In this document: positions 2,907-62,934 of the stretch, in pieces
Layout: each line of letters opens with the position of its first letter
Numbering within the stretch: position 1 is the stretch's first letter
UHGV virus genome: UHGV-0253196
DNA: 64,000 nt
Source of the DNA: a virus
Reading direction: 5' to 3' (one strand)
Notes under the pieces: generated by a model
What the model was told of the DNA's origin: nothing
Databases searched by the model: none
Seen by the model: the letters and a program-made list of their open reading frames with translations, nothing else
Made by a program: the position numbers and the translations under genes

Positions 2907-2925
2907 AGAAAGGAGCGGTAAAGAA

Positions 2926-3861: not shown

Positions 3862-3866
3862 TCATT

Positions 3867-5000
3867 ATGAAGTATATAAATGCGTCTGGCGGTGGTGGAG
3901 GTGGTACTGGTTCTGATGATGTGACAGCACTCAACAAACACGTACTGGAACCGTACACAGCAGTAACAAAAGAGAGTGATGATGACCCCGCAAAAGGAAC
4001 TATGAAGAATTTAGTAGACCGGGCCACAATAACGCACACATCAGATAATGCAACAAAGGTGTTGTTAGCAGATGAAGCCTATATAGCAGAAAACTCAGAT
4101 GGTGTTAGACGTGTTGAGTTACGTTACAACGGTGATGAAGGTTTTATAAAGCCTAACACATTAGTTGCATACCCAGAATCACAAGCAGGAGCAAAGTTTG
4201 GTATTACAGCAGACAAGATAGCAAACGGTCAAGTAGTGTTGGGAATGACCGGGACGTATAAAGGTTTAGGTAATGCTACAGCCGCACAAGTCCTTAGTGG
4301 TTATTCGTTTTCTTCTGCCGCTTTAAGTAATGCCTCTGGTTCTATGCCAGATAGAGGTGCATGGGGTGCGACACTTGCAATCAACGGCAGTGTTACAATA
4401 CCTGCCGGGTATCACAATGGTTCTGGACGAATAACACAAAGTATTGCCACAAAAGGAGCAACCACTATAACACCCATGTCTGCACAGCAGACAGCCGTAA
4501 GTGCTGGCACCTATTGTAGTGGCAATATAATCGTTGCTGGGAACGGCAACTTTGTAGCAGGAAACATTAAAAAGGGAGTAAACATCTGGGGTGTGGTAGG
4601 AACTTTTGAAGGTTGGGTACCTACACCACAGGACTGGTATTACAACGGTGTAAACACCTATGGAGTAGGATGTAATAATGCATACTTCCGATTTGAGAAT
4701 ACCCGCATATACTGTTTTTCTACTTCGTCTTCTAGGGTAAATAGTATCCAATTCAGAAGAGCCTACAACGTACAATCGTATTCAAGACTTAATTTTAATG
4801 GACATTTTATAAGTAACGCGGTGACTATTAAAGTAGACTTAGGAGGAAGTAATATAAGCACCACAGTTACTAATGTACCAAATGGAGCGGGTTCTTTTAG
4901 TATTGATATATCACAGATATCCTCTTTTTCTGGTTCAGAAGTCCTATGGATACGTGACCTTAAAGAAGGTCTGTTCTTTAATAGAATATCACTATCTTAG
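3867..5000 (+). CDS. tail fibre-like protein with N-terminal poly-Gly (SGGGGGGTGSDD)
   Basis: RBS GGGAGG lies 8 nt upstream of ATG 3867. The glycine hinge and the Gly/Thr/Asn-rich C-terminus are typical of fibres. Confidence 0.45.
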   Translation: MKYINASGGGGGGTGSDDVTALNKHVLEPYTAVTKESDDDPAKGTMKNLVDRATITHTSDNATKVLLADEAYIAENSDGVRRVELRYNGDEGFIKPNTLVAYPESQAGAKFGITADKIANGQVVLGMTGTYKGLGNATAAQVLSGYSFSSAALSNASGSMPDRGAWGATLAINGSVTIPAGYHNGSGRITQSIATKGATTITPMSAQQTAVSAGTYCSGNIIVAGNGNFVAGNIKKGVNIWGVVGTFEGWVPTPQDWYYNGVNTYGVGCNNAYFRFENTRIYCFSTSSSRVNSIQFRRAYNVQSYSRLNFNGHFISNAVTIKVDLGGSNISTTVTNVPNGAGSFSIDISQISSFSGSEVLWIRDLKEGLFFNRISLS

Positions 5001-8460: not shown

Positions 8461-8486
8461 GCCCGGTCTAACCCACCGGGTTTTTG
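8461..8486 (+). terminator. rho-independent terminator (GCCCGGT...ACCGGGTTTTT)
   Basis: GC stem followed by T5. Confidence 0.55.
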
Positions 8487-8546
8487 TTTGCAATAAAATT
8501 GATTCAGTGTTACACTATATCCAAAACTAAAACGAGAGGTGACGAA

Positions 8547-30699: not shown

Positions 30700-31086
30700 A
30701 TGAAAACGAGTATTACAAAAATGTTCACCTTTGAAGCGGCACACAGATTACCTAACTATGTAGGTGCGTGCGCTAATCTTCACGGTCATTCTTATAAACT
30801 TGCCGTGACTGTCACCACAGATAAGCCTTTAAATAAAGACCGCAACGCAACGGGTATGATAATGGATTTTAAAGTCCTCAAAGACATTGTGAACCGAAAG
30901 GTTGTCGGCCCGTTAGACCATTCACTGTTAAATGACTTTTACTACAACCCCACCGCCGAGATTATGGTAGAAGACTTTGCCGCGAATATACAGGCAGGAC
31001 TTGATGATTTTGATGAAAGTGTGTACGTTTCAAACATTAAGTTGTGGGAGACCGAAGACAGCTATGCAGAGTGGTCGAGAGACTAG
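30700..31086 (+). CDS. queD: 6-carboxy-5,6,7,8-tetrahydropterin synthase QueD
   Basis: PTPS-fold signature FTFEAAHRLPNY...CANLHGHSY. 128 aa. Confidence 0.8.
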   Translation: MKTSITKMFTFEAAHRLPNYVGACANLHGHSYKLAVTVTTDKPLNKDRNATGMIMDFKVLKDIVNRKVVGPLDHSLLNDFYYNPTAEIMVEDFAANIQAGLDDFDESVYVSNIKLWETEDSYAEWSRD

Positions 31087-31103
31087 AGAAAGAGGTGTTG
31101 TAT

Positions 31104-31745
31104 ATGATGTTCTATCATGAGATATTTTTATCTATACAGGGTGAATCCAGTGACGCAGGACGCCCTTGTATATTTGTAAGAATGTACGGCTGTCCGATTG
31201 GGTGTTCATATTGCGACCAGCCCCAGGAAAAGAGTGACAGAAAGCGTATTGGTGTTGACACCATGTTATCAAAGATATACGCATTGAAGTGTAAGAACGT
31301 GTGCTTCACAGGTGGAGAACCTATGATTTACGCGCAGGAACTTATACCCGTGTTTATCGAACTTACCGACCGGGGCTACACCGTGTCCGTAGAGACCAGC
31401 GGGTGTGTAGAGTTAGAGTCTTACCCCGTGAGAAGGTCATTTAAGTACGTGATGGATATTAAATGCCCCAGTAGTGAGGTGTCAGAGAAGAACATTTACA
31501 GAAACCTTGCGTACTTACAGCCACATGACGAGGTGAAGTTTGTCGTGGCAGACGAGAAGGACTACCAATTTGCCCGTAACGTGTTAAAGCGTTATAATAC
31601 CAGTGCGCAAATTTTATTTAGTCCCATGTTTGACACAGACGGCAAAGCAGTGATAGGACAAGAACTTGTGAACTGGATTTTGAGAGACAAGCTGTTTAAT
31701 GCCCGGGTTCAGATTCAGTTACACAAAATTCTGTCAGTGAGGTAA
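31104..31745 (+). CDS. queE: 7-carboxy-7-deazaguanine synthase QueE (radical SAM)
   Basis: IFLSIQGESSDAGRPCIFVRMYGCPIGCSYCD is a QueE-type N-terminus with a CxxxCxxC cluster. GGEP motif. RBS AGAGGTG. Confidence 0.8.
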   Translation: MMFYHEIFLSIQGESSDAGRPCIFVRMYGCPIGCSYCDQPQEKSDRKRIGVDTMLSKIYALKCKNVCFTGGEPMIYAQELIPVFIELTDRGYTVSVETSGCVELESYPVRRSFKYVMDIKCPSSEVSEKNIYRNLAYLQPHDEVKFVVADEKDYQFARNVLKRYNTSAQILFSPMFDTDGKAVIGQELVNWILRDKLFNARVQIQLHKILSVR

Positions 31746-31749
31746 ACAC

Positions 31750-32472
31750 ATGATTGGAAAACGTAACCCAGAAAAAGACCAAGACTATTACAATGGTCTG
31801 ATTGAGAGTATATGGTATAATCTAGTAGAGGTTAAATCAGAACTTACAGGTATTAAAGAGGAAGTAAACAAAGACCATCCATTTAAAGAAGACCCAGGAC
31901 ACCTTAGTGCTGAAAGATTACCCGTAAAGAAAAATACTATTAGGGAGCACTTAAAGGAGGGTTATCTTCCTAAAAGACCCGTTAAGGTGTTCAGTAACCG
32001 GGACGAAGCATATGATTGTTTATACTACTGGTTAGAGAAGTTATATCTTACCGATTGGGCCATAAAACTTAAATTCGTGCGGATAAATGAAGAACCACTT
32101 AATGACGAACAGTCTGGCGACGTACGCAGAGTATTTGAGCAGAAAGCGGCGATAATCACCCTTCCATTGCCAGACGATAACTTTCTTGACGCTTGCAAAA
32201 GCAGTGTTGCGAGAGTGGGCCACGAACAGTCTTTGGTGCATGAGTTATTGCACTTAAAGGAAGACCCTGTACAGTTTGTAGAAGATGGTGATTATACCGC
32301 CGGGTTCTATAACATACACAAACACAATGAAGTTGAAATGATGGCAAGAACACTGTTAATGGTGAAGTACAACTTATCGCCGTCTTACTTCAATAACGTA
32401 GACAGAAAGGAGAACGACAATGGCTTGTGGCACAAAGAAACCGAAGACACCGAAGAAACCCAAAAAGAATAA
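31750..32472 (+). CDS. hypothetical protein with an HExxH motif (HELLH)
   Basis: SLVHELLHL. It lies inside the deazaguanine cluster. Confidence 0.4.
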   Translation: MIGKRNPEKDQDYYNGLIESIWYNLVEVKSELTGIKEEVNKDHPFKEDPGHLSAERLPVKKNTIREHLKEGYLPKRPVKVFSNRDEAYDCLYYWLEKLYLTDWAIKLKFVRINEEPLNDEQSGDVRRVFEQKAAIITLPLPDDNFLDACKSSVARVGHEQSLVHELLHLKEDPVQFVEDGDYTAGFYNIHKHNEVEMMARTLLMVKYNLSPSYFNNVDRKENDNGLWHKETEDTEETQKE

Positions 32473-32487
32473 GAAGTAGGACAACCG

Positions 32488-32518
32488 AAGACCTGTGCTA
32501 ATAAAGACAGGTCTTTTC
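32488..32518 (+). terminator. stem-loop (AAGACCTGT..ACAGGTCTT followed by TT)
   Basis: Perfect 9-bp stem. Confidence 0.5.
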
Positions 32519-32520
32519 GT

Positions 32521-32847
32521 ATGAAAGGAATACATGACATGGGACAGATATCAAAATTAGCTGAAAATGCGTATGAAACCGCAGTTGCGCACGGTTGGTA
32601 TGACACACCAGTTTCGTTTGGTGAGGAAGTTGTGTTGTGTCACAGTGAGTTATCCGAAGCACTACAGGAGTTTAGAGTAGGAGGGTTTGGAACACGTAAA
32701 GACAAGATAACTGAGGAACTAGCAGACACAGTTATAAGGATTTTTACTCTAAGTTCAAGACACCAGCTTGACATTGAAGCGGCAATATTAAAGAAGATGG
32801 AAAAGAACAAAGACAGACCATACAGACATGGAGGAAAGTTACTATGA
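32521..32847 (+). CDS. MazG-like nucleoside triphosphate pyrophosphohydrolase (start may be ATG 32539)
   Basis: EExxE...EELAD motifs: CHSELSEALQEFR, EELADTVIRIF. Confidence 0.6.
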   Translation: MKGIHDMGQISKLAENAYETAVAHGWYDTPVSFGEEVVLCHSELSEALQEFRVGGFGTRKDKITEELADTVIRIFTLSSRHQLDIEAAILKKMEKNKDRPYRHGGKLL

Positions 32848-34559
32848 GTAAACCAGTTGTAGTATTAAATAGTGGAGGTTTTGACAGCACCGTATTGTTA
32901 CATTATGTAAAAGAGGTTGAAGAAGACAGTCTTGTATACTCACTGTTTTTTGAATACGGTCAGCGTTCCATGGAACAAGAAAGACGCTGTGCGCGTAAAA
33001 ACTCTGTAGACCTTGACGCGCAGTATATAGGTGTCAGTCTTCCAAAGATATACTGGACTGGCAGTGACTTCTATAATGAGGGAGGGTTTAAGGTAGACAA
33101 GCAGTATCTTGAAATGAGAAATTTAATTTTTCTGTCATATGCTCTTTCCTTTGCAGAGAGTGTAGGTGCAGAAAAGGTTTATCTTGCAGTGCTGAAATCA
33201 CACCACGGGTATCCAGACACATCACCTAGATTTATTAGTGCTATGAATGAGGTATCGAATATAATAGGTGTTAGTATTGAAGCACCATTTATAGAGAGTG
33301 ACAAATACAACCTTGTTGGTCTTGCTTACAAGTACGGCATTACTGAAAACGACTTTCACAGTTGTGATAAACCTACTACAGACGGGAAACCGTGTGGCGT
33401 GTGTGATGATTGTGAGGTAGTAAAAGAAATCATGTCCCAGTTAGAGTTAAAACACCCACGGGACGTAAAGTTTAGTCCAAGAGGAACACATGAACAGTAT
33501 GAGACCGTCTATAAAGAGTACCCGGTGAGTGAGTTAAGATTCACCATAAATAACAGGTGCCAGTTTAGTTGCGCTCATTGTTACTACGGATATGAGACTT
33601 CACACCGGGAAGACCTATCAGAGAAGGAACTTACTGAATTTGCTATCAGACTTCACAAGCAGTTTGGGTTTAAGAGTATTCACTATTGCGGCAAAGAACC
33701 TATGATTGATAGCGCGATATTTGATTCCATAAGGACACTTAGGAAGGTGTTACCCGTTGACATTGAATACAGTGTTGTAACAAACGGCTTAACTGTGACT
33801 GAATACTATGAGCAGTTAGTGAATGAAAGGTTGTTAGACAAGGTGTTCCTGTCCGTTGATGATATTGAGACAGTGACGGATAAAGAACAGAAGTTACGAA
33901 ACACCAGTAGGCATATATTAAATGCTATAGACTTCCTGGTTACGAATAAAGTTCCGTTACAAGTGTTTATTGACCTTCACAAAGGTAACTACAACTACAT
34001 CAATGAAATGTTGTATCAGTTAGTGAAGTTAGGTGTTAGAGAGTTTTTCGTCCGGGCAATAATGCCAATAGGTAACGCCGAAGACCTTGAACCTCTGTCC
34101 ATAGCAGAGATAGCGGAAGTGTACAGTAAACTTAAGAGGTTGACAAACTATTACCACACCACCGTTAAAGACTTTAAAGTACTTCTTACTTTAGGTAAAG
34201 ACGTTATAGTCCGTATGCAGGAGCGTGACATTGACGATATGACAAAAGACGAGGAAGACTTAATAGAAATGGTTGCAAAGTCTTTAGAGTATAACACAGA
34301 CGTTGTTGTGCCGGGAATGAGTATATACCCGGAGGAAGTTTGCACACAGTTTCTTGATACTCTTACCCTTACATCAGACGGGTATGTGTTAGGCTGTACT
34401 TCCGCTGTAAGCTGTAGTGAGTACTGGAAACACAGCGCGTTTGATATAAATACACCAGACGAGGACTTCAAGAATCGTTTGATTGAAGCAAGAAGTAAGG
34501 TGTTAGAGTATGACGGTGAAAATTGTCCATTTTCTTGTCCCAAAAGTATTGACATTTAA
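32844..34559 (+). CDS. queC: fusion protein: QueC (7-cyano-7-deazaguanine synthase) N-terminal domain plus a radical SAM domain with a SPASM/twitch-like C-terminal Cys cluster
   Basis: N-terminus has VVLNSGGFDST (PP-loop) and the QueC zinc motif CDKPTTDGKPCGVCDDC. Residues from about 225 onwards have CQFSCAHCYYG (Cx3Cx2C), GKEPM, and C-terminal GCTSAVSC...CPFSC. Confidence 0.7.
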   Translation: MSKPVVVLNSGGFDSTVLLHYVKEVEEDSLVYSLFFEYGQRSMEQERRCARKNSVDLDAQYIGVSLPKIYWTGSDFYNEGGFKVDKQYLEMRNLIFLSYALSFAESVGAEKVYLAVLKSHHGYPDTSPRFISAMNEVSNIIGVSIEAPFIESDKYNLVGLAYKYGITENDFHSCDKPTTDGKPCGVCDDCEVVKEIMSQLELKHPRDVKFSPRGTHEQYETVYKEYPVSELRFTINNRCQFSCAHCYYGYETSHREDLSEKELTEFAIRLHKQFGFKSIHYCGKEPMIDSAIFDSIRTLRKVLPVDIEYSVVTNGLTVTEYYEQLVNERLLDKVFLSVDDIETVTDKEQKLRNTSRHILNAIDFLVTNKVPLQVFIDLHKGNYNYINEMLYQLVKLGVREFFVRAIMPIGNAEDLEPLSIAEIAEVYSKLKRLTNYYHTTVKDFKVLLTLGKDVIVRMQERDIDDMTKDEEDLIEMVAKSLEYNTDVVVPGMSIYPEEVCTQFLDTLTLTSDGYVLGCTSAVSCSEYWKHSAFDINTPDEDFKNRLIEARSKVLEYDGENCPFSCPKSIDI

Positions 34560-34576
34560 TACTCATGGTGTATAAT
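34549..34576 (+). promoter_or_regulatory. sigma-A-type promoter TTGACA-16-TATAAT embedded in the 3' end of the queC-fusion gene
   Basis: Read directly from the sequence. A 6-bp hairpin (GTAGGT..ACCTAC) lies in the leader. Confidence 0.55.
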
Positions 34577-34665
34577 TGTATTCAGAGATTTAGGAATGGC
34601 GTAGGTCTTCCGTATTTACCTACAGCCTAGTCCCTTGCTCACAATACGATAAGGAGGTAAACACC

Positions 34666-34842
34666 ATGATGAATGTTTACGCAGAATCCCCCAAAGGTGG
34701 CGGGCGTGCCGCTGGTGGTAATGCACAGCAGACTGCACCCGCACCGACCAGAGGTGGAGTAAGAGCCACACTGGGTAGAGCGGCTACAGGTGCAAGAAAC
34801 GCGCTGAACAGGATTATTCGTCCCAGAGGACGTAACCGTTAA
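34666..34842 (+). CDS. small Gly/Ala/Arg-rich basic protein (58 aa), markedly GC-rich, not in the track
   Basis: Strong RBS AAGGAGGT lies 8 nt upstream of ATGATG. It has its own promoter and terminator. Confidence 0.4.
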   Translation: MMNVYAESPKGGGRAAGGNAQQTAPAPTRGGVRATLGRAATGARNALNRIIRPRGRNR

Positions 34843-34864
34843 TCAGTCCCGCACCAAGAAAGAG

Positions 34865-34898
34865 AGAAGTCCTAATAAACTGGGACTTCTTTTCTTTT
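34865..34898 (+). terminator. rho-independent terminator (AGAAGTCC..GGACTTCT followed by TTTCTTTT)
   Basis: Read directly from the sequence. Confidence 0.65.
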
Positions 34899-34944
34899 AC
34901 CCGGATTTATGTTATACTGTCTTAAAAAGAAAGGAGACAACACA

Positions 34945-35199
34945 ATGTATATTGAATCACCAAGAGACAAAGAAGGAGTTAGAGACTGGGAAGCAGAAGA
35001 AGACGCACAGGCTTTATTAAAAGCCCGCCAAATTAACTCAGACCCCGTGAGAAAAGCGAAAGCACAGGCGGTTATAAGGAGTACCCAGGCCACGTTACAA
35101 GGTGCGTTGACTGGGACACCTCCTGTAAACACACCGAGTTCAAGAAATAACCCCGCCACTATCGGACAGTTAAACATTCCCGGCAGAAACAAAAGATAA
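34945..35199 (+). CDS. hypothetical protein
   Basis: RBS AAAGGAGACA precedes ATG 34945. Confidence 0.4.
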   Translation: MYIESPRDKEGVRDWEAEEDAQALLKARQINSDPVRKAKAQAVIRSTQATLQGALTGTPPVNTPSSRNNPATIGQLNIPGRNKR

Positions 35200-35254
35200 C
35201 ACCAGAACACCACAAACACATTATATACTTACAGAAGACAGAAAGGAATCGCGC

Positions 35255-35806
35255 ATGAACGATAAATACAATTTGAGTTCAAAAGAGCAGGAGATAGCCA
35301 GCCATATAAAAGGTATAATGAGTTTGCTAGGTATTGAGGAAACACCATCAAACATAGACACCCCAAAGCGGATAGCGAAAATGTATAGCCGCGAAGTGTT
35401 TAGCAGTGAAGGTAAAGACCTAGCCGAACTTGACGCACAAATGACTACTTTCATTAACACGGATTTAAGTTCAATGCCCGTGACAATGACCGGGATTAAG
35501 TTTAGTTCCATGTGTGCACACCACTGGCTACCATTTTTCGGTGAAGTAGAGATAAGCTACACACCGTTTACCAAAGTGATTGGGTTGTCAAAACTGCCGC
35601 GAGTTGTGAAGTGGTTCAGTAAAAAGCCACAGACCCAGGAAGAAATGACGAAAGAGATAGGGAACTACTTAGCAGTGTTCCTTAATCCCCGTAAACTGTC
35701 CGTGAAGGTAACAGCATTGCATACTTGCGTAGCGTGTAGGGGAATTGAGAGCGTAGGGACAGAGACCATAACTGAATACAGATATAACAGAGGGGAAGAC
35801 GCTTAA
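35255..35806 (+). CDS. folE: GTP cyclohydrolase I FolE
   Basis: MCAHHWLPFFGEVEISYTP matches CEHHLVPF. GLSKLPRVVKWFSKKPQTQEEMT matches GLSKLxR...QERLT. Confidence 0.8.
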   Translation: MNDKYNLSSKEQEIASHIKGIMSLLGIEETPSNIDTPKRIAKMYSREVFSSEGKDLAELDAQMTTFINTDLSSMPVTMTGIKFSSMCAHHWLPFFGEVEISYTPFTKVIGLSKLPRVVKWFSKKPQTQEEMTKEIGNYLAVFLNPRKLSVKVTALHTCVACRGIESVGTETITEYRYNRGEDA

Positions 35807-35870
35807 CGGCGTCTTTTCTTTTGCGCGCAATATGATATAATAAGTACATAACTTATGAAAGAGGTGAACC

Positions 35871-36452
35871 ATGAAGGTAGCAATATTTAATGGCAGTTCA
35901 AGACAGCATAGTAACAGTGAACTAATCTCAGGTGAATTAAGACGTATATTTGAGCGTCTAGGGTATGACACCGTAGTGCTCAATGCAAGTGACATGACAG
36001 GCTGTAGACCATGTAATCAATGTGGATTCTGTAGTTCAGTAGGTAGCTGTATATATGAAAGAGATACTCTGGGACAACACCATATTAAATGTATATGGGC
36101 TAGTGACATATGGGTGATTGTAACACCTGTGTATTGCTTTTCCATGTCCCCGCCGACCTTGACGTTACTGTCCCGGTTTTATTCTTATGGCCCAGAAGTG
36201 TTGCAAGATAAAGTTGTGTCTTCTGTGATAGTAAGTGGCAGTAGCGGTAGATATGGTGGAAAGAGCCTTGTAAATGAATCCTTTAAGCGATACTTTGAAT
36301 ATACAGGTGCTAACTATACAAACAAGCCCATAGGTATCACTACAAACGACACCGTGTTAGAAGACCTGCATACACTTACACCACGGTTAAGACTATTTTG
36401 TAAAGACTTGATAAGGAGAGCGAAAAATGCTGAAAATAGTACCAAGGACTAA
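35871..36452 (+). CDS. iron-sulfur flavoprotein (NADPH-dependent FMN reductase fold with a compact Cx2Cx2Cx2C..C motif)
   Basis: MKVAIFNGSSRQHSNSE flavodoxin-like start. CRPCNQCGFCSSVGSC cluster. Confidence 0.55.
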   Translation: MKVAIFNGSSRQHSNSELISGELRRIFERLGYDTVVLNASDMTGCRPCNQCGFCSSVGSCIYERDTLGQHHIKCIWASDIWVIVTPVYCFSMSPPTLTLLSRFYSYGPEVLQDKVVSSVIVSGSSGRYGGKSLVNESFKRYFEYTGANYTNKPIGITTNDTVLEDLHTLTPRLRLFCKDLIRRAKNAENSTKD

Positions 36453-38595
36453 AAAGAAACCCGTACCAAAGAAAAAGGTTCCACCAAAAAAGAAGACCAC
36501 CACGCCCGTAGAGATAGACGAGACCCCGGAAGTAGAGGAAGAACCAAAAAAGAACTATAGTTCTCTGCATGATGTAATGGACACTAACAGACCTTTTAAG
36601 TTAGTGTTTTCTGGCGTTGAGAATGAAAGCTACTATGACATACTTTTTGATTGCGGCGTGCGTAGCTTTCTAATGTCCTATCACTATATCCAGAGCAAGC
36701 ACATTAAAATGCGTGATAGGTTTGATGGGACGGGTGTTAAACTGTTTATTGATAGTGGCGCGCATACATACCAGAATGACCCTAAATATCTGGAACTTCC
36801 GTTAGAGTATTGGGAGAAGCACTTGCAGAAGTACCTTAACTGGGTTGAGCGGAATAGAAAGTATATATTTGCCATAGCAAGTTTTGACTTTGAGAACATT
36901 GTAGGTGCAGACACAGTAGATAGGTGGAACCGAGAATACTTAGAACCGTTCATGTTGCGCACAGGTATACCAGTGTGTTTCGTGTGGCACCAAAATTCAA
37001 AGTATGACTGGGAGTTCTATTGCAAGCGTTATCCCTATGTGGGATTTTCGTCTGTCAATACAGAAGGTGAAGCCATAGAACTATCAGAGTATAAACAAAG
37101 ACTGAAAGTGGCAGAGAAGAACGAAGCACTTGTACACGGGTTCGGTATGACGCGTACAGGTATGTTGACTGAACTTCCCTTCTACACCTCAGATAGTACG
37201 ACATGGCTTGTGGGTTTGCAGTATGGGGAAATGAACTACTGGAATGGCACCAAAATGAACCGCCTTAAGAAAGACAAGTGGAAATCACCTGCTGTACTAT
37301 CAGAGTTTGAGAGAAGGTATAACTCAGACCAAACACTGTTAGAGCAGGAAGACATAACCGAGGTGATAAAAGTCAATGTGTTTGCTTTCCTTGACGCAGA
37401 GGATTATATCGTCACCAAGCTACGTTCTCAAATGTACTGGTTAAAAGCAAAGACAACTAAACGGGACGTGAATAACTTACCGCCAGACTTCTTTCCAGAC
37501 CCTGACATGGTGATGGTGTGTTTAGACGAAGGTGATAAAAGTGTAGTGTCATATGCTCAGAAATTTAATATCAACCCGGAATATGCTGACGCTGACTTTT
37601 TAGTGTGTTGTGCTACATTGTTCCTTAACTGGGATAACTCAATATACAGTGACTGTAAGGACATACTCATTGAGGACGAAGCAGTGATTAAATCCCTCCA
37701 TGACACACTGATAAACAGGATAGTCCCAGGTGTTGATGAAATGGTCGAAGACCTAACGCAGTTATTCAAAGAGTGCATAAGCGGCGAGAATGACAAGCTA
37801 TTACAGATAGGCACCAACTTTGACCGCGCACAGAAAGAGCGTGAACACTATATAGAGGAAGAAGACGAGTATGAGGAAGTAGAAGTATCAGAAGGTGAGA
37901 TAAGGGCCGCTGTGTATAACAACATTCCTAAAGACCGTCTTCTTACCGCAGGTGAAGATTCCGCGCCAGAGATTACGGAACTTGACGCAGAAATATTTAA
38001 CGGCACAGGTATAACACCACGTTTTGATGATAGAGGTAAATTCCTTAAAGGTGTTAGACAAGTAAAGAAACCAAAGTCCGTGTACAGTAAGAAGTTCCCT
38101 AAACTGGCGTGTGCTACGTGTTTCGCGGCAAGTACGTGTCCAGAATACAAAGACGGCTATGTGTGTGCTTATAATAAGCTGTTCAGCAACTATGACACAC
38201 GTAACATGGGTGACATTGTAGAAGCTATGCAATCCATGGCAAGTGTGAACATGGGCCGCCTACAGAAAGCAATGCTGTTTGAGACACTAGGTGGTGCATT
38301 AGACCCACAGGTATCACAGCTTATTAATCAGAACGTCACTTTGCTGAACAACCTTAAGTCAATGTATGAGAACACCAACGCAATGGTGCTTAAACAGACC
38401 CGCAATATAAGACAGGACGGAAGTGTAGAAGAATCTGTGCAAGTAACCAATCCTCAGAGCATGGGTATTATGGAACAGTTACTATCAAAGATAATGCCTA
38501 GTAGTGATAAAGAAGACGAGGTTATAGTTGAATCAGAGGACGTAACACCCAAAAAGAAAAGCAGTGCATATGCAGACCTGGAAGAAGACGATTAA
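36427..38595 (+). CDS. dpdA: DpdA-like tRNA-guanine-transglycosylase-fold protein (putative DNA 7-deazaguanine transglycosylase) with a lysine-rich N-terminus and a roughly 400-aa C-terminal extension
   Basis: LFIDSGAHTYQ is compatible with the TGT DSGGFQ Asp motif. HGFGMTRTGMLTELPFYTSDSTTW fits GxGxT...DxFDC. It is co-located with folE, queDEC. A late Cys cluster CATCFAASTC...C is present. Confidence 0.5.
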   Translation: MLKIVPRTKKKPVPKKKVPPKKKTTTPVEIDETPEVEEEPKKNYSSLHDVMDTNRPFKLVFSGVENESYYDILFDCGVRSFLMSYHYIQSKHIKMRDRFDGTGVKLFIDSGAHTYQNDPKYLELPLEYWEKHLQKYLNWVERNRKYIFAIASFDFENIVGADTVDRWNREYLEPFMLRTGIPVCFVWHQNSKYDWEFYCKRYPYVGFSSVNTEGEAIELSEYKQRLKVAEKNEALVHGFGMTRTGMLTELPFYTSDSTTWLVGLQYGEMNYWNGTKMNRLKKDKWKSPAVLSEFERRYNSDQTLLEQEDITEVIKVNVFAFLDAEDYIVTKLRSQMYWLKAKTTKRDVNNLPPDFFPDPDMVMVCLDEGDKSVVSYAQKFNINPEYADADFLVCCATLFLNWDNSIYSDCKDILIEDEAVIKSLHDTLINRIVPGVDEMVEDLTQLFKECISGENDKLLQIGTNFDRAQKEREHYIEEEDEYEEVEVSEGEIRAAVYNNIPKDRLLTAGEDSAPEITELDAEIFNGTGITPRFDDRGKFLKGVRQVKKPKSVYSKKFPKLACATCFAASTCPEYKDGYVCAYNKLFSNYDTRNMGDIVEAMQSMASVNMGRLQKAMLFETLGGALDPQVSQLINQNVTLLNNLKSMYENTNAMVLKQTRNIRQDGSVEESVQVTNPQSMGIMEQLLSKIMPSSDKEDEVIVESEDVTPKKKSSAYADLEEDD

Positions 38596-39438: not shown

Positions 39439-39467
39439 TTGACAGCATTTACCATATGTGCTACACT
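39439..39467 (+). promoter_or_regulatory. sigma-A-type promoter TTGACA-17-TACACT
   Basis: Read directly from the sequence. Confidence 0.5.
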
Positions 39468-39514
39468 GTACCAGTATCACTATTAAACAACCACATACAA
39501 AAGGAGGAAAAGAA

Positions 39515-40195
39515 ATGGCAGTAATCAGAACAAGTACAGGTGAGAAGCCCAAGAGAGGAGAGCTGTACTACGTCTATCCGCAGATGGCGTGGGACAATGA
39601 TGATTCTGAGAAAGGGACAAGCAGAACTGATGTAAAGAGTGGGAGACCCGCTATCATTATTGGTAATGACGCTGGGAATGGTGCTTCTGATATGTGTGTT
39701 ATTGCGTGGCTTACACGTCAAGACAAAGCACCTTTACCAGAACACGTTACAGTACCTTCCGGCCCCGCCAAAGAATCAACTATGTTGCTGGAACACCCCA
39801 TCACCGTGTCTCAATCGCGTTTAGGTGAAAAGATTAGCACCTGTTCCACACCATTAATGAAGAAAGTTGATTCTGCATTGCTGGTATCTATAGGTATATG
39901 TGATACCTTACAAGACGCTGAATATCTGTTAAAATGTCGTGCTATGGTGTATGACTTGCAAGCGCAGGTAGATACATATAAGCACGAACTTAAAGAGAAA
40001 GACGCGGAAATTAAATCATTAAAAGATAAACTTGAAGTTAGTGACACCAATATAAGGGATTTAAGTAACAGGTTAGAGTGTGCAGAAAATCAGAACACCT
40101 ATAACCCAAGTGATTTAAAACTTGAATTGGTGTTAAATGAGCGGGATTATTTGAGGGACCTTGTTAAGCTGTCAATGACAGGAGGTATTATCTAA
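39515..40195 (+). CDS. MazF/PemK-like (CcdB/MazF fold) domain protein with a C-terminal coiled coil
   Basis: GELYYVYP, KSGRPAIIIGND, MCVIAWLTRQ, PEHVTVP and ESTMLLEHPITVSQSRLGEKI parallel the MazF/PemK motifs GDIVxVDF, RPAVVLS, VVVPLTS, HVxL and IDKxRL. Confidence 0.45.
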   Translation: MAVIRTSTGEKPKRGELYYVYPQMAWDNDDSEKGTSRTDVKSGRPAIIIGNDAGNGASDMCVIAWLTRQDKAPLPEHVTVPSGPAKESTMLLEHPITVSQSRLGEKISTCSTPLMKKVDSALLVSIGICDTLQDAEYLLKCRAMVYDLQAQVDTYKHELKEKDAEIKSLKDKLEVSDTNIRDLSNRLECAENQNTYNPSDLKLELVLNERDYLRDLVKLSMTGGII

Positions 40196-50317: not shown

Positions 50318-50337
50318 ATTACAAAAGGAGAATAGTT

Positions 50338-50958
50338 ATGTTAAACAGAAGTAGAAGAAGGGAAATTGAAGAAAGACTTAAAAAAGGAACCATGAATCCC
50401 GGACATTTGAATAGTCTGTCCGTAAATGACCTAGCGTCATTATGTCATGCGTTAGGTGTTGAGACTACACACAAGCGCACAGATATGGTAAACGCCTTAT
50501 TGCGTCTGAATGGTAAGAGTGTCAAGGTTCCTTCTGCGCCGACCTATAACGTGTCCCGTGACGGTCTTAATGAAATGATTCTTGAATGTCTCAGTGACCC
50601 TACCAACCCGGCAACCGCTAAAATGCGGGAGGAAATATCAGAGACACTTGTGGTTGCAATGCTGTTTGTGTTGCGCAATAAGTATGGTTTTGCACAGAAA
50701 CGTATTGACGGCTTTCTGAAAGAATTTAATGACGTGACAGACGGTATCACCAGCGGACAGTTAAGTCTTTCCGAAATGCACAAGGAGATTGCGAAGCCAT
50801 ATAAAGACGGTAAGTGTAACCTTAAGATTAGGTACGAGAGTGGCCCAGTCAATAATTGGATAAGGAATGAAGTGTCTGAGACTATTGCAGGTATGAAGAC
50901 ATTAGGTTGTATATCCTGTCCATTTAAAGAAACCAGGAATAGTGGTGTTGACAACTGA
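50338..50958 (+). CDS. hypothetical protein with an N-terminal HeH/SAP-like motif
   Basis: LSVNDLASLCHALGVETTHKRTDMVNALL. RBS AAAGGAGAATAG. Confidence 0.5.
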   Translation: MLNRSRRREIEERLKKGTMNPGHLNSLSVNDLASLCHALGVETTHKRTDMVNALLRLNGKSVKVPSAPTYNVSRDGLNEMILECLSDPTNPATAKMREEISETLVVAMLFVLRNKYGFAQKRIDGFLKEFNDVTDGITSGQLSLSEMHKEIAKPYKDGKCNLKIRYESGPVNNWIRNEVSETIAGMKTLGCISCPFKETRNSGVDN

Positions 50959-51124
50959 TTTTTAATGTGATATACTGTGTTCAAGCTAAGAAATTAGCTT
51001 ACACAGTTCCCATTGAGGAATACCCCCAATTCAAAGGTCACGGTGTTGCAGATTAATCCTCCCGTGTTTGACATGTTATCACCACTGTAAACGGTTCATA
51101 ACCCACCGTGGCTTTTTCCACTCC

Positions 51125-51154
51125 TTGCCAGAGTGTGAGACACCTTTCTATAAT
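51125..51154 (+). promoter_or_regulatory. sigma-A-type promoter TTGCCA-18-TATAAT driving the tRNA-like gene
   Basis: Read directly from the sequence. The predicted transcription start falls about 8 nt before the tRNA-like 5' end. Confidence 0.55.
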
Positions 51155-51169
51155 GGATATGTATTGGGA

Positions 51170-51249
51170 GCAAGTGTCGTGTCGGACGACCTACAAGGTT
51201 TAGTATTCTCCTTTCCTAGTATGAATGGGTTCGATTCCCGTTACTTGCA
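51170..51249 (+). tRNA. tRNA-like gene (80 nt, class-II-like): 7-bp acceptor stem, canonical T-arm GGGTTCGATTCCC, 3-bp D-stem with GG in the loop, long variable region, GTA at anticodon positions 34-36, but a defective anticodon stem and non-canonical residues 33 and 37
   Basis: Acceptor GCAAGTG pairs with TACTTGC. T-stem ATGGG pairs with CCCGT around loop TTCGATT. It has its own promoter. It overlaps a spurious track ORF (51068..51253). Confidence 0.4.
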
Positions 51250-51361
51250 TTGACACCGTATGGTGGTTGATGGTTCGTGGTTGTACCTAGATACTACCTG
51301 TGTGAAGCGGTGTTACAATGTCTTGTCAACTTAATAACTAACTTCTCTTTCAGTAAGTATA

Positions 51362-51390
51362 AGTGGTTTTACCACTGGTTTTCTTACAAC
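51362..51390 (+). terminator. hairpin AGTGGT TTTA CCACT followed by GGTTTTCTT
   Basis: Read directly from the sequence. Confidence 0.45.
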
Positions 51391-51396
51391 GGAATT

Positions 51397-51450
51397 AAGA
51401 CCTATGCCTATAGAACACGTTAGCGTGTTGCGGGTGTAGGTCTTTTTCTT
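51397..51450 (+). terminator. hairpin AAGACCTA...TAGGTCTT followed by TTTCTTT
   Basis: 8-bp stem with a long loop. Confidence 0.45.
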
Positions 51451-51533
51451 TGTGTTTGCTTTATACGTGTGGTATGTGTTATACTGTTCCACGTAACAAA
51501 TTTGTAACAAATGAAAAATGGAGGTTATACAGA

Positions 51534-52118
51534 ATGAAGAAAGCAGTAATACTAACACTGTGGTTAATAATCTTAATGTGTGTTTCATTTACCGCAGGAG
51601 CAGAAGAAAAGGAACCCGTAAACGTGATAACACTTGCAAGTGTCCCGGCAACAATACCATATGATTTAACTAATGGTGTTAAAGAAAGTGTAGAAAATAG
51701 CGTTGCTTCTATTATAGAAGAAACACCAGCACCACAAGCCGAGATAGTTCCTAGAGAGGAACCAGTGCAAGAGTTTGTTCCTGTGATACCTCACACAGAG
51801 GAAGACGTGTATTTGCTGGCACAGTTGATTAACAGCGAAGCCGGGATAGAAAGTCCACAATGTCAAGCGTATGTGGCAAGTGTTGTTATTAATAGGTTGA
51901 ATAGTCCAGAGTTCCCAAACACCATAGATGGTGTGATATTTGATAGAAAGTTTGGAGTTCAATTCAGTGTAACGTTGCGGAACAAAAAAGGACACAGACC
52001 CATTGATAATACCCCGTCTGAACAGCAGATACAGATAGCGCGGCATTGCCTTAATAACGGAAGTGTGTTACCATCTGATGTGTTAGTATTTTATTCTACC
52101 AGTTGTGATTCTGGGTAG
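51534..52118 (+). CDS. secreted SleB/CwlJ-family cell-wall hydrolase
   Basis: Signal peptide MKKAVILTLWLIILMCVSFTAGA. LLAQLINSEAGIESPQCQAYVASVVINRLNSPEFPNTIDGVIF...QFS matches the SleB-type hydrolase domain. Confidence 0.7.
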   Translation: MKKAVILTLWLIILMCVSFTAGAEEKEPVNVITLASVPATIPYDLTNGVKESVENSVASIIEETPAPQAEIVPREEPVQEFVPVIPHTEEDVYLLAQLINSEAGIESPQCQAYVASVVINRLNSPEFPNTIDGVIFDRKFGVQFSVTLRNKKGHRPIDNTPSEQQIQIARHCLNNGSVLPSDVLVFYSTSCDSG

Positions 52119-59277: not shown

Positions 59278-62200
59278 GTGTCTCATAAATTGGGACGTTT
59301 TATTTTGTGGTGGAAAATAACACTGTGTTTTCTGCTGTCATGGGTGTTAGACCTTTGTGATTGTACACTTGTTAGAGTTATAGAGGTCACAGTGTTTGCC
59401 GGGAGAGTGAAGACTACAGACCTAGTGAACATGATATTTAATTTCTGTGAGCTATATTCTGGCAAGACTATGTTCCCGTACCAAGCACAGTTCTCAAAGA
59501 GGGTTATCCGTTCAATACTGTTAAATGACGGTGAAGAAATAACAGCCCTGTTTGCGCGACAATCTGGTAAGTCAGAGACCATAGCAATAACAGTTGGTGG
59601 TCTTATGATTATGTTGCCACAGCTTGCCAATATGCCAATGTTCGCGGGAGACACAAGACTTGAAATGTTCAAAGACGGTCTCTGGGTTGGTATATTCGCG
59701 CCCGGTAAACGACAAGCAGAGATTACCTATAACCGTGTAAGACAGCGGTTGCAGTGTAAGACCGCATTAGCAGTAATGCAAGACCCGGAATTTAATCTAT
59801 ACTTCCACACGTCCAACGGGCAAACGTGTTCACTGTCTAACGGTTCTTTCGTTACGTGTATATCAGCGTCCGACCAGTCCAACATTGAGGGTGAATCTTT
59901 CAAACTTATTATATGTGAGGAATGTCAAGACATATCCAACTATAAGATTAGAAAGTGTTTGACTGGTGACACACTTGTGCTGACTGATAGTGGTAAGTAT
60001 AAAAGGCTTGATGAAATAGTAAAAGACCAAACAGATAGTGTTGTGTGCTATGACAGTACAATGTCTTATTTGCAGGTGAGAAAGCCCAAAGAGTATTTAG
60101 ATAATGGCGTTCAAGACGTATATGAGATAACACTAGATAACGGGGAGACTATAAAAGCTACAGAAAACCATCAGTTTTACACGTATAACCAAAAGACCCA
60201 CGGCGAGAAGTGTGCATTTAGGACTGTAAATCAAATAAAGGACAGTATGTGTAATGACCGTCCTTTAAGAATAGGTGTACCTGCGAGATTGCCTTACTTT
60301 TCAGATGAAAAGCAGAATGACTACGAAGAAGGGTTAATTTTAGGTTATTTCTTAGGTGACGGGTGCACAGTATCGACACCTAAGTTTATAGGTGATATAC
60401 CTACGTGTAATAGACTTTATGATACTATTCGTAGATGTATAGACCCGGATATAAAAATGACAGAAACACACTACAATGAACAGAATGGTATGTTAGAGGT
60501 GTGTTTTTCTACTGAAACGAATAAGAAGTATTCTAACTCACTTAGGAACTTCTTTATGTGGTATGGTTTAGCCGATAAAACGGGTGTTGATAAAAAGTTG
60601 CCAGAAAACACGCTGTACTCAAAACAGTTCTATAGAGGTCTTATAGAAGGACTTATAGAGACAGACGGCAGTATAGAGTGTTGTTGTACTAAACCTGTTA
60701 TATCCTTTGCGGGAATATCAAAACACCTTGTAGAACAAGTAAAAGAAATACTTAATCGTTTTGGTGTTCATTCTACAATACACAGTGTTGATAACACAGG
60801 AGGTTTATCTAAAAACTCAAAGACCTTGTGGTTACTTCACATTAAGTCAGTTCATGACATAAGGTTGTTTGCGGAGGAATTTGTGTTATTTAGAAAGCAA
60901 GTGTATTTGAATGAAGCACTTGAAACAGTCAAGGACAAAGAAGATAGGGAGGTGTCTAAATACTATTCCGAAGAAATGCGTTTCTGTGCGGTAAAGAGTA
61001 TTGAGTATGTAGGTAAGGAACACACCTACTGTTTAAGTGTTGAAGGTAGAAACTTTATAGCAAATGGTATGATAAGTTCAAATAGCATACACCCAATGGG
61101 CGCCGCTTATAATGCTACCATAGTTAAGATTGGTACTGCTACCACCTTTAAGGGTGATTTTTATGACGCTATACAGCGTAACAAGACCAACTACGAGCAT
61201 AAGAAAAAAGAGTACCGCAAGCGTGGCAGTAATATATCTACACTTGTTCGGAACCATTTTGAGTATGACTATAAAGTGGCCGCTAAGTATAACCCTAAGT
61301 ACGCCAAGTATGTTGAACAGGAAATGAAGCGTTTAGGCGAAAACTCAGACGAGTTTAGAATGGCGTACTGTGTTACACCAGAAACGCGTATACTTACAGC
61401 AGACCTACGACACGTAAGGGCAGACCAAATTAAACCGGGAGATAAGTTGATAGGTTTTGATGAAAATGTACCAAGTAAGTATGGACAAAGAAGATTCAGA
61501 GAGTCTATTGTTGAAGATGTGGGTGTGATACAAAGACCTTGTTATAAGTTGACACTTGAAGATGGAACCAGTGTAACAAGTTCATCTGAACATATGTGGT
61601 TAGTGTTTACCGCAGGAAGTAGAACACAGTGGAAGAAGACAGAAGATTTAATGCTTACTGACCGGATATATAAAGTAAGTGACGTGTGGGATACCCCAGA
61701 TGAACTTAATTATAAGATAGGATACTTATCCGCCGCATTTGACGGGGAAGGTTGTGTGTGCCAGTTAAAAGGTAAAATCAGTCAAGTGTCATTTTCACAG
61801 CGTAACAATGCTATGCTTAAAAAAGTAAAACAGTATCTAACAGATTTAGGGTTTACTTATGGTGAACGGGTAGAGCATAGAGAAGGTTACGATTCTGTTC
61901 ATCATTTGTACTTAACAGGTGGTAAATATGAATTGTATAGATTTTTAGGTACAGTAAGACCACAAAGATTGCTGAATAATTTTGATGTTAATAGATTAGG
62001 TACTCTCAGATGTGTAAATTATGCTAGTAGAGGTTTTACACATCCATGTGTTATAAAAAAGCAGTTTATAGGTGTTCAGACAGTTATACCTATAAGGACT
62101 TCTACACGAACCTTTGTCGCTAATGGTTTTGCTAGCCATAACTGCTTAGAGTGGATTATCGAACGTGGTATGTTCGTTGATATAGATAAGTTTGAGGTTG

Positions 62201-62934
62201 CAAATGGTGAACCAATGCTTGAACGTGTTTCTTATGACAAGAAAGCTAAACACGTTGCTGGTATAGACGTAGGTGGTAAGAATGACGATACCATTATCAC
62301 CATAGTAGAGGTAGACTGGTCTATGCCTGTTATCATGGAGGAACGTACAGAAGATTCCGGGCAAAGAATCATGTATGAAGCGTATAACACCTTTATTGTA
62401 GACTGGTGTTGTATAGCAAATGAGCCGGATTATGAAATTCAGTACAACATGATAATACACTACTTAAACAATTTCTGGGTAGTCCGTGTTGTGTGTGACG
62501 CAACCAGAGAGGCAAGTTTGGCCCATAGACTAAGAGCAAATTTAAGGTGTGAAGTCATACCATACATTTTCACCACGGTGTCTAAGTCCGAACTGTACAA
62601 GCTGTTAGACACAGAAATATCTTCCGGGCGCGCAAGAGTTCCATGCGGTGAAGCTACGAAAGAGACCAAAGAGTATAAGTCATTCATGAAGCAGTTAGGT
62701 GATTTACAAAAAGGCTGGTCTGGTGCGCACATGGTATGTTGCCACGGTTCCGGGAAAGACGACCATGATGATTACTGTGACAGTTGGGCTTTAGCTGTGT
62801 GGGGTGCTAGTAGTAAGGGAGAAGAAAATAACACAGAGACACGGGAAAATAAGTTCATGAAGAAGACACCAAACGAAAAGACCGCAAACAACAGACGTAA
62901 TTGTTTGACGGCGCGAAGAATGAGAAGGAGGTAA
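59278..62934 (+). CDS. terL: terminase large subunit interrupted by two inteins; the extein is about 584 aa. The start is uncertain: GTG 59278 gives a hydrophobic N-terminus, and the real start may be ATG near 59431 or 59473
   Basis: Walker A ARQSGKSE, Walker B-like LIICEE, and a C-terminal nuclease-like acidic region. The portal gene follows. Confidence 0.7.
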   Translation: MSHKLGRFILWWKITLCFLLSWVLDLCDCTLVRVIEVTVFAGRVKTTDLVNMIFNFCELYSGKTMFPYQAQFSKRVIRSILLNDGEEITALFARQSGKSETIAITVGGLMIMLPQLANMPMFAGDTRLEMFKDGLWVGIFAPGKRQAEITYNRVRQRLQCKTALAVMQDPEFNLYFHTSNGQTCSLSNGSFVTCISASDQSNIEGESFKLIICEECQDISNYKIRKCLTGDTLVLTDSGKYKRLDEIVKDQTDSVVCYDSTMSYLQVRKPKEYLDNGVQDVYEITLDNGETIKATENHQFYTYNQKTHGEKCAFRTVNQIKDSMCNDRPLRIGVPARLPYFSDEKQNDYEEGLILGYFLGDGCTVSTPKFIGDIPTCNRLYDTIRRCIDPDIKMTETHYNEQNGMLEVCFSTETNKKYSNSLRNFFMWYGLADKTGVDKKLPENTLYSKQFYRGLIEGLIETDGSIECCCTKPVISFAGISKHLVEQVKEILNRFGVHSTIHSVDNTGGLSKNSKTLWLLHIKSVHDIRLFAEEFVLFRKQVYLNEALETVKDKEDREVSKYYSEEMRFCAVKSIEYVGKEHTYCLSVEGRNFIANGMISSNSIHPMGAAYNATIVKIGTATTFKGDFYDAIQRNKTNYEHKKKEYRKRGSNISTLVRNHFEYDYKVAAKYNPKYAKYVEQEMKRLGENSDEFRMAYCVTPETRILTADLRHVRADQIKPGDKLIGFDENVPSKYGQRRFRESIVEDVGVIQRPCYKLTLEDGTSVTSSSEHMWLVFTAGSRTQWKKTEDLMLTDRIYKVSDVWDTPDELNYKIGYLSAAFDGEGCVCQLKGKISQVSFSQRNNAMLKKVKQYLTDLGFTYGERVEHREGYDSVHHLYLTGGKYELYRFLGTVRPQRLLNNFDVNRLGTLRCVNYASRGFTHPCVIKKQFIGVQTVIPIRTSTRTFVANGFASHNCLEWIIERGMFVDIDKFEVANGEPMLERVSYDKKAKHVAGIDVGGKNDDTIITIVEVDWSMPVIMEERTEDSGQRIMYEAYNTFIVDWCCIANEPDYEIQYNMIIHYLNNFWVVRVVCDATREASLAHRLRANLRCEVIPYIFTTVSKSELYKLLDTEISSGRARVPCGEATKETKEYKSFMKQLGDLQKGWSGAHMVCCHGSGKDDHDDYCDSWALAVWGASSKGEENNTETRENKFMKKTPNEKTANNRRNCLTARRMRRR
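59956..61083 (+). mobile_element. intein 1 (376 aa) with a LAGLIDADG homing-endonuclease domain, inserted after YKIRK in the terminase ATPase domain
   Basis: CLTGDTLVLTDSG start and NFIANGMISSN end, with +1 Ser. Internal LILGYFLGDGC and GLIEGLIETDGS. Confidence 0.65.
61369..62142 (+). mobile_element. intein 2 (258 aa, LAGLIDADG-type) in the terminase nuclease domain
   Basis: CVTPETRILTADL start and TFVANGFASHN end, with +1 Cys. Internal IGYLSAAFDGEGCV. Confidence 0.65.

Follow-up and report, generated by a model that had tools for sequence, protein, structure and literature searches.

A tRNA-shaped module that lies between RNA domains and is cut by RNase P and RNase Z is known from mascRNA/MALAT1 and from tRNA punctuation. 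The YrlA-type Y RNAs (Rfam RF02553), which are partners of Ro60/Rsr, also contain a tRNA mimic with a canonical T arm inside a noncoding RNA. This mimic is permuted, its parts running in the order T arm, closed acceptor-like stem-loop and D arm, and the ends of YrlA form the Ro60-binding stem. The tRNA-like domains of YrlA undergo RNase P cleavage, CCA addition and tRNA modifications, and the RNA carries the motif GNCGAAN0-1G near its 5' end (PMC4201824). GOLLD and ROOL are large, highly structured phage noncoding RNAs near tRNA islands, and GOLLD sometimes carries tRNAs covalently in the linker between two domains (PMC12286853; PMC5737381).

The locus described here belongs to the phage genome UHGV-0253196, from which one stretch of 64,000 nucleotides (the window) was analysed. 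All genes of the window are on the + strand. The element of interest is 80 nt long (51170-51249, + strand) and is located within a 575-nt gap, with a gene for 206 amino acids (50335-50958) on one side and a Hydrolase_2/SleB-like secreted gene (51534-52118) on the other; a 182-aa gene, a DUF932 gene, a DNA ligase gene and an intein-containing terminase gene lie downstream of the hydrolase. An earlier note on this DNA had described a promoter-driven tRNA-like gene, and the parts it named are all present at 51125-51249. The T arm is AUGGG-UUCGAUU-CCCGU and includes GGGTTCGATTCCC, the acceptor stem GCAAGUG/UACUUGC has 7 bp with one G.U pair among them, a short hairpin occupies the D-arm position, and GTA falls at linear positions 34-36 (G34 T35 A36). 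An A follows directly 3' of the acceptor stem, and CCA is not encoded. As judged from comparison with related phages, this element is the middle domain of a conserved noncoding RNA of about 465-470 nt in a small group of human-gut phages.

When compared with YrlA, the element has the normal tRNA arm order and an open acceptor stem. The YrlA model gave no match at E up to 10 in 50900-51550, and the same search mode finds YrlA in L074, a more distant relative with a YrlA-type Y RNA at the window-equivalent locus (Y-unit core at 1051-1107, 33.4 bits, E 1.7e-5, with a TROVE gene adjacent). The constant sequences of the relatives' Y-RNA units are absent from the window. The L074 TROVE protein has no tblastn match in the 64-kb window, which leaves about 18 kb of the phage genome aside, and no TROVE domain appeared among the window ORFs scanned against Pfam. 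With the wrong topology, no Rfam match, no TROVE gene in the window and no Y-unit constants, the element was rejected as a YrlA or other Y RNA. Its invariant D-like loop region GUCGGACG is one mismatch from the YrlA motif, which may be a coincidence. The GOLLD and ROOL models of Rfam also failed to match the window RNA even at E up to 10, and the window RNA differs from both in being shorter (about 465 nt) and in being known from one narrow phage clade only. A tmRNA was rejected, since neither ARAGORN nor Rfam finds one and only 48 nt separate the acceptor strand from the T arm. The likeness to mascRNA/MALAT1 and to tRNA punctuation lies in the tRNA shape between RNA domains, where cuts by RNase P and RNase Z would be possible; on the other hand, the element has no sequence or Rfam relationship to mascRNA/MALAT1, and its processing is a prediction.

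Standard detectors do not report the element. ARAGORN, which the earlier note had proposed as a check, found zero tRNA and zero tmRNA genes in the whole 64-kb window. No Rfam model matches the element at gathering score, the best match in permissive mode being tRNA-Sec with 18.7 bits (E 0.6) against a threshold of 47, so that it is not detected as a canonical decoding tRNA. Nevertheless, the element is more than a chance match, because its T-loop motif is rare, a model of tRNA-Leu finds it alone, and it is conserved with compensatory changes. For the first of these, only 0.21 occurrences of GGTTCRANTCC are expected by chance in the window; the sole further match, at 63330, sits within the portal gene and was dismissed as chance. 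For the second, a reciprocal covariance model was built from nine tRNA-Leu genes of relatives alone, and in 64 kb it picks out the element and nothing else (30.2 bits, E about 1e-5).

For the third, relatives were gathered via proteins identical or similar to those of the flanking genes in Logan and ENA assemblies. About 22 loci from separate sequencing runs share the gene order and the gap of the window, and the element recurs in about 20 related gut-phage contigs. A scan of JGI/ENA metagenomes added one relative from a human-gut assembly (L014, 97% identical); L015, from the same scan, is eukaryote-like DNA in which a 20-mer matches by chance. IMG/VR lacks the family: exact-pattern scans of it with three conserved 22-25-mers gave no match, and the 39 loci recovered there with the gapped pattern TGTCGGAC...GGTTCGAWTCC were all ordinary tRNAs or chance matches. 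The intergenic region has no blastn match among GenBank phages. Among cultured phages, Bacillus phage BCD7 comes closest (38% identity of the polymerase); in the syntenic gap of BCD7 there are repeated hairpins of an unrelated kind, and a tRNA-like element is missing.

Among the relatives, the gap exists in 14 distinct full-length variants and the element in 8, with L012 and L013 as clearly divergent lineages. At 4-fold degenerate sites of three flanking genes, these two lineages are 42-57% identical to the window, which is saturation, whereas the element retains 73-80% identity to them and the 150 nt 3' of the element 84-91%. In the 8-variant alignment, the acceptor, D-position and T helices are paired in 100% of cells, and both sides have changed in 5 of their pairs: 1-72 and 5-68 (each G-C to A-U), two adjacent pairs of the D-like hairpin, and one T-stem pair. 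The 12-bp stack of acceptor and T arm, with its UUCRANY T loop, is thus fully paired in every variant and carries compensatory changes. The observed pairing values were reached by 0 of 500 shuffles, with no slid register near; the covariation comes from three divergent lineages only. The G.U pairs indicate that the + strand is the one that folds. No ORF over the conserved noncoding region is common to all lineages, and L012 and L013 have frame-breaking indels in the 3' domain (insertions of 8 nt and 2 nt, respectively). Therefore, the conservation acts on RNA or DNA and not on protein; the small-ORF explanation of the conserved flanks was rejected on the same grounds, and its best candidate loses the ATG in L012. 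Taken together, the comparison of variants indicates that the element is a real, evolutionarily maintained tRNA-shaped RNA. The earlier note had regarded a covariance score below threshold, combined with no conservation in relatives, as refutation; the Rfam score is indeed below threshold, yet the element is conserved with compensatory changes.

These figures also bear on the suggestion that the element is a degenerate relic, that is, a decaying pseudogene that outlived a lost tRNA array and now serves no function. A disrupted anticodon arm would fit such a history, as would the tRNA arrays of relatives, with up to 10 genes at the slot where the window has none. However, an identity of 73-80% despite saturated neutral sites speaks for purifying selection and disfavours a decaying relic. 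Compensatory changes are found in four helices, and the cloverleaf-like fold is the minimum free energy (MFE) structure in 7 of the 8 variants. We regard a pseudogene as very unlikely.

The alignment, pair counts, MFE folds and covariance-model matches agree on a four-way junction for the tRNA-like domain (51170-51249, + strand). Its parts, all on the + strand, are the acceptor helix (51170-75 with 51243-48), a D-like hairpin (51176-90) whose loop GUCGG has an invariant GG, a long arm (51191-51223), the T arm (51224-42, T loop UUCGAUU at 51230-36) and the discriminator-position A (51249). The four-way junction is the unconstrained MFE fold in seven of eight variants, and the window variant is within 0.8 kcal/mol. 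A classical D stem GUG/CAC is still possible in L012, but the remodelled hairpin accounts better for the four coordinated changes in L013. Both the compensatory changes and the folds show that a single long arm fills the stretch from the D-like hairpin to the T arm. Its pairing is kept though the sequence differs, as UAC.AGG/CCU.GUA in the window, CACAUAA/UUAUGUG in L012 and CAUAUAGG/CUUAUAUG in L013. The element had been described as class II with a long variable region; the nearest real tRNAs are indeed class II tRNA-Leu, but there is no separate variable arm.

The anticodon arm is broken, as had been said before: in its place stands a helix of 6-8 bp with an apical loop of 16-22 nt. In the window, folds and alignment place the enlarged loop UUUAGUAUUCUCCUUU at 51199-51214 (+ strand), comprising an anticodon-loop remnant UUUAGUA (51199-51205), in which the GTA is 51203-05, and a conserved pyrimidine tract UUCUCCUUU (51206-14). 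The tract is found in the apical loop of every variant, and UUCUCC and UUU of the loop are invariant, apart from a single C-to-U change in L008. The remnant is near-intact in 7 of the 8 variants and not kept in L012, which reads UUUAUCAAAG in place of GTA. A 5-bp anticodon stem with a 7-nt loop, U33 and a conserved anticodon was not found, and L012 differs in both the sequence and the length of the loop. A possible loop-loop pairing of GUAUUCU (51202-08) with GGAAUAC (51016-22) was discarded, not being conserved in the L005 lineage.

GTA had been taken as the anticodon of a tRNA-Tyr. The D loop of the element is about 5 nt shorter than that of tRNA-Leu, and therefore its linear positions 34-36 are not the canonical 34-36. 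In the canonical register the loop is UUUAGUA, one base off the UUUAGGA of a relative's tRNA-Leu(UAG), and a 4-nt insertion then follows. From the alignment we conclude that the GTA is a coincidence of numbering and not an anticodon. TGT requires U33 (U33-G34-U35), and the base 5' of the G in the element is A; neither this feature of a TGT substrate nor a conserved GUA is present.

The phage does encode QueD, QueC, FolE, a radical SAM enzyme resembling QueE and a TGT/DpdA-like protein of 722 aa, but the proposed link to Tyr and queuosine finds no support in the element, where the G is preceded by the wrong base and GTA is lost in L012. That the element is an odd functional decoding tRNA, or a queuosine/TGT substrate, is highly improbable. 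Its acceptor stem, T arm and discriminator A would suit such a role, as would the genes for preQ0 synthesis and the TGT/DpdA-like protein, although phage DpdA systems reportedly act on DNA and not on tRNA. Against it stand the lack of a 7-nt loop on a 5-bp stem, a loop of variable length, the unconserved GTA, and the failure of ARAGORN and Rfam to recognize the element.

That the element descends from a tRNA is well supported. Descent specifically from a phage class II tRNA-Leu is suggested by sequence comparison and is our best guess. The 7 best non-self matches of the element's own covariance model are tRNA-Leu genes in the arrays of relatives (26-30 bits), compared with at most 25 bits for other isotypes and at most 16 bits for tRNA-Ser; in the reciprocal direction, however, the 30 bits that the element obtains from the tRNA-Leu model are no better than those of real non-Leu tRNAs (32-36 bits). 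The class II tRNA-Leu(UAA/UAG) genes of relatives, for example L095 4425-4508 and L086 4165-4252, share with the element a 7-bp acceptor with the wobble pair G7.U66, GUG at 10-12, GG in the D-position loop, the discriminator-position A, and the genomic slot and strand. The T stem GCAGG/CCUGU is identical between the L012 element and the L095 tRNA-Leu. On the other hand, the element differs from tRNA-Leu in its shorter D loop and re-paired D stem, in having no 7-nt anticodon loop, separate variable arm or encoded CCA, in being missed by ARAGORN and at the Rfam threshold, and in being embedded in long conserved structured flanks.

Other similarities compete with this assignment. An nhmmer match of the element favours a relative's tRNA-Lys. 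Over its 3' 21 nt, it has exactly the sequence of tRNA-Gly genes from Bacilli, Lachnospiraceae and candidate-phyla-radiation MAGs, which raises the question of a DNA-level element, either an attachment site copying a host tRNA 3' end or a replication origin. In those tRNA-Gly genes, however, a discriminator U is followed by CCA, in contrast to the A of the element. The element has a full 5' acceptor strand, which covaries with its 3' partner, the G.U pairs point to a + strand RNA, and there is no integrase among the scanned ORFs (not every ORF was scanned). An attP copy was rejected for these reasons, and a DNA-level explanation can hardly be entertained.

The resemblance to tRNA-Leu would also serve a decoy, and a decoy, as the earlier note had allowed, or another non-decoding function is possible. 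As an uncharged or unchargeable look-alike of tRNA-Leu, the element would titrate a tRNA-binding host factor or lead it astray; examples would be defence nucleases that target tRNA, LeuRS, T-box leaders and modification enzymes. The tRNA-Leu-like acceptor stem, the discriminator A, the elbow elements and the near-intact UUUAGUA in most variants fit this idea, and so does the heavy investment of relatives in tRNAs and tRNA mimics at the equivalent locus. Bacterial LeuRS does not read the anticodon, which also favours it. Nevertheless, the UUUAGUA remnant is not kept in L012. In the remodelled D arm position 8 is paired, the usual linkers are gone, and the length of the arm is unlike that of a tRNA; ruler-type readers such as T-box leaders should therefore not fit. 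We rate the decoy as rather unlikely.

We now turn to the RNA that surrounds the element. The earlier note had placed a promoter directly on the element, and a site with TTGCCA (51125-30), an 18-nt spacer and TATAAT (51149-54) is present in the window (51125-51154, + strand, 11/12 match). In L005, L012 and L013 it falls below the scan threshold. We account for this by the position of its -10 in a variable A/T-rich linker; its -35 lies within a conserved hairpin loop. Another promoter, P1 (50948-50976, + strand), has TTGACA, a 17-nt spacer and TG-n-TATACT, an 11/12 match with an extended -10. It is the single match in 64 kb to the full-consensus pattern TTGACA-N14-16-TGNTATAMT, lies 180 nt upstream of the internal promoter-like site, and is kept in all three of these lineages. 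Judged by this conservation, P1 probably drives the whole noncoding RNA.

RNAalifold on the 14 distinct sequences predicts the locus to be structured throughout from P1 to a long hairpin with a U run, with 122 pairs, 18 of them with compensatory changes. All the following features are on the + strand. The 5' domain (50983-51169) contains a GAAA-capped hairpin (50983-51000, with compensatory changes), a long hairpin with CCUCC in its loop (51036-51113, with compensatory changes in the stem) and the hairpin CACUC-CUUGCCA-GAGUG. CCCAAU (51023-28) and AUUGGG (51162-67) form a long-range helix that stops 2 nt short of the tRNA-like domain. The U run that follows the 5' domain lacks conservation, and transcription is therefore expected to continue into the element. 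The 3' domain (51250-51396) is almost invariant, with 84-100% identity to all relatives, and comprises two hairpins, one of 65 nt (51252-51316) and one that is nested in GUAAG/CUUAC with a U run behind it (51362-51385); compensatory changes occur in its hairpins. A long GC-rich hairpin followed by UUUUU (51397-51450), in which the apical pair changes from G-C to A-U in a compensatory manner, is likely the intrinsic terminator of the noncoding RNA according to the predicted fold. The 3' limit of the locus is the extended -10-like TGTTATACT (51477-51485) upstream of the Hydrolase_2 gene. The predicted fold places the 5' leader of the element in a helix with sequence further upstream, and RNase P could be impeded as a result.

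Since the element lies exactly between two independently folded domains, the tRNA shape may be pure punctuation. It would then only recruit RNase P and RNase Z, with the 5' (50983-51169) and 3' (51250-51450) domains as the functional products and the excised piece idle. The 3' domain is better conserved than the tRNA-like domain (84-100% versus 73-80% identity), and tRNA punctuation and MALAT1/mascRNA operate in this manner. However, the conservation of UUCUCCUUU and of the GG in the D-like loop goes well past what processing needs, and compensatory changes maintain the long arm, although the acceptor/T stack alone would suffice for RNase P and RNase Z. We consider pure punctuation unlikely.

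The same slot has been filled differently in more distant phages. Through homologues of the DUF932 protein (34-45% identity), a far larger group of phages of 60-85 kb was reached. Upstream of their hydrolase and DUF932 genes, ARAGORN found at least one tRNA in half of the IMG/VR loci (18 of 36), the largest array having 10 tRNAs in one locus, with tRNA-Leu among the array genes. A Ro60/TROVE gene is present in 12 of the 36 loci, and Y-RNA units stand between the tRNA array and the TROVE gene. None of these (tRNA arrays, Y RNAs or Ro60) was found in the window. One parallel in layout is L086, in which a strong promoter and a long leader precede tRNA-Gly, a spacer separates this gene from tRNA-Leu, and a trailer and a terminator come before the promoter motif that also precedes the hydrolase gene of the window; from promoter to terminator, this two-tRNA operon has the layout of the window locus. 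Shared motifs between the flanking domains of the window and the relatives' Y RNA and tRNA-operon leaders were looked for by local alignment against shuffles and rejected (z at most 1.8).

On balance, we favour, with moderate confidence, the reading of the element as an exapted, tRNA-Leu-derived mimic without a decoding function in the middle of a ~465-nt RNA, probably freed by RNase P and RNase Z. We call it non-decoding because ARAGORN and Rfam miss it, its loop has 16-22 nt and the GTA is not conserved. Of the tRNA, it would have kept the acceptor/T-arm stack of 12 bp, a canonical T loop and, in the D position, a loop with GG. The D arm would have been remodelled into a new hairpin, and the anticodon stem, anticodon loop and variable arm merged into one arm of 6-8 bp, whose 16-22-nt loop always contains UUCUCCUUU. 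Transcription would start from the strong conserved promoter at 50948-76 and end at the hairpin 51397-51450. Because the acceptor/T minihelix and the elbow are intact, the transcript should be a substrate for host RNase P, which would cut 5' at 51169/70, and for RNase Z, which would cut 3' after A51249, both sites being predicted from the shape alone; CCA might then be added by a CCA-adding enzyme. Such processing would free a stable 80-nt tRNA-shaped RNA and part the 5' domain from the 3' domain. The likely effector surface would be the enlarged pyrimidine-rich loop, which may pair with purine-rich, Shine-Dalgarno-like RNA or bind a protein.

A bolder version of this exaptation would treat the ~465-nt transcript as a new class of large structured phage RNA in which the exapted tRNA-Leu body displays an anti-Shine-Dalgarno mimic; it would capture the Shine-Dalgarno sequences of mRNAs or disturb ribosomes during infection, and in this clade would stand in functionally for the island of tRNA array, Y RNA and Ro60 at the equivalent locus of relatives. 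The loop UCUCCUUUCCUA resembles the Firmicute 16S end CCUCCUUUCUA, sharing k-mers with this 3' tail, a resemblance noticed post hoc, and further CCUCC and CACCUUUCUA tracts occur in the 5' domain. Across the entire RNA, k-mers of the 16S tail are in excess (17 five-mers, compared to 6.9 in shuffles), again for a similarity noticed post hoc. We hold this version to be quite unlikely.

The usual view of tRNA islands in phages is that they supply tRNAs for decoding. The window locus would instead represent a former tRNA gene that lost decoding and has been selected as the tRNA-shaped domain of a larger structured RNA. As the equivalent locus of relatives carries a tRNA array, Y RNA or Ro60, it would be a naturally occurring example of tRNA exaptation. 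For annotation, the lesson is that such an element escapes standard tRNA finders and Rfam alike. With three lineages and clear helices, this small group of phages would provide a defined system for asking what phages use tRNA mimics for.

Within the 5' domain of the noncoding RNA, a hairpin at 51036-51113 is formed by an 11-bp stem, and compensatory changes in this stem were found in both of the divergent close relatives that share the gap (L012 and L013). The loop that the stem closes carries CCUCC, the anti-Shine-Dalgarno core, in every case. The U run 3' of the hairpin is not conserved. The 3' domain (51250-51396) is a block of about 150 nt with almost no variation, the identity being 84-100% even when lineages with saturated synonymous sites are included. 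Within it lie a 65-nt hairpin in which compensatory changes occur, an extended -10-like element TGTTACAAT at 51311-51319, whose counterpart in L012 is TGTTATAAT, and a CU-rich tract CUUCUCUUUCAGUAA with a resemblance to boxA antitermination sites.

Among the more distant phage relatives, a Ro60/TROVE gene is preceded by 1-3 tandem Y-RNA units in six loci (L082-L084, L098, L103 and L116, at about 2100-3600), and the same arrangement exists in L074 (815-1335) and L075 (1199-1625). In each unit, the 7 nt past GGGUUGUGUAG are complementary to the 7 nt ahead of CGUUUUUCUCC, and these segment pairs covary from unit to unit (AUAAAGU/ACUUUAU, AUUUAGC/GCUAAAU and UUAUUGU/ACAAUAA). The Rfam YrlA match in the units covers only the core of T arm, acceptor-like stem and D arm, with a score below the gathering score, and some of the units are called as odd tRNAs by ARAGORN. 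Another distant locus, L086, has an operon of two tRNAs, Gly-UCC and Leu-UAA (3568-4420), that is equipped with a consensus promoter and a terminator; its leader measures about 290 nt and its spacer 195 nt. Tracts that resemble the anti-Shine-Dalgarno sequence occur several times in the leader (ACCUCC, CCUUUCUA and CUCCUU).

Elsewhere in the window, inteins with a LAGLIDADG homing-endonuclease domain are present in the terminase large subunit (59278-62934) and in a ResIII/DEAD-type helicase (8484-11195). A 7-deazaguanine gene cluster at 30700-38595 consists of a QueD-like protein, a radical SAM (QueE-like) enzyme, a QueC-radical SAM fusion, GTP cyclohydrolase I, an FMN reductase and a TGT/DpdA-like protein of 722 aa, the C-terminal part of which weakly matches a family whose annotation is small terminase subunit. 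Also, a 245-aa protein (39458-40195) combines a MazF/PemK-like endoribonuclease toxin domain with a C-terminal extension.

In another branch of relatives (L078, 1760-2661; also L080), the slot upstream of the hydrolase/DUF932 genes is a gene-free gap of 900 nt, A/T-rich and repeat-rich, in which no tRNA and no RNA-family match was found. In Bacillus phage BCD7, the nearest cultured phage, the gap upstream of the DUF932 gene (4354-4830) holds a three-fold repeat of a tetraloop-capped hairpin, two of the tetraloops being GAAA, with CAUACUA and a terminator-like hairpin following. These repeats, which carry no annotation in the BCD7 record, may be small RNAs.
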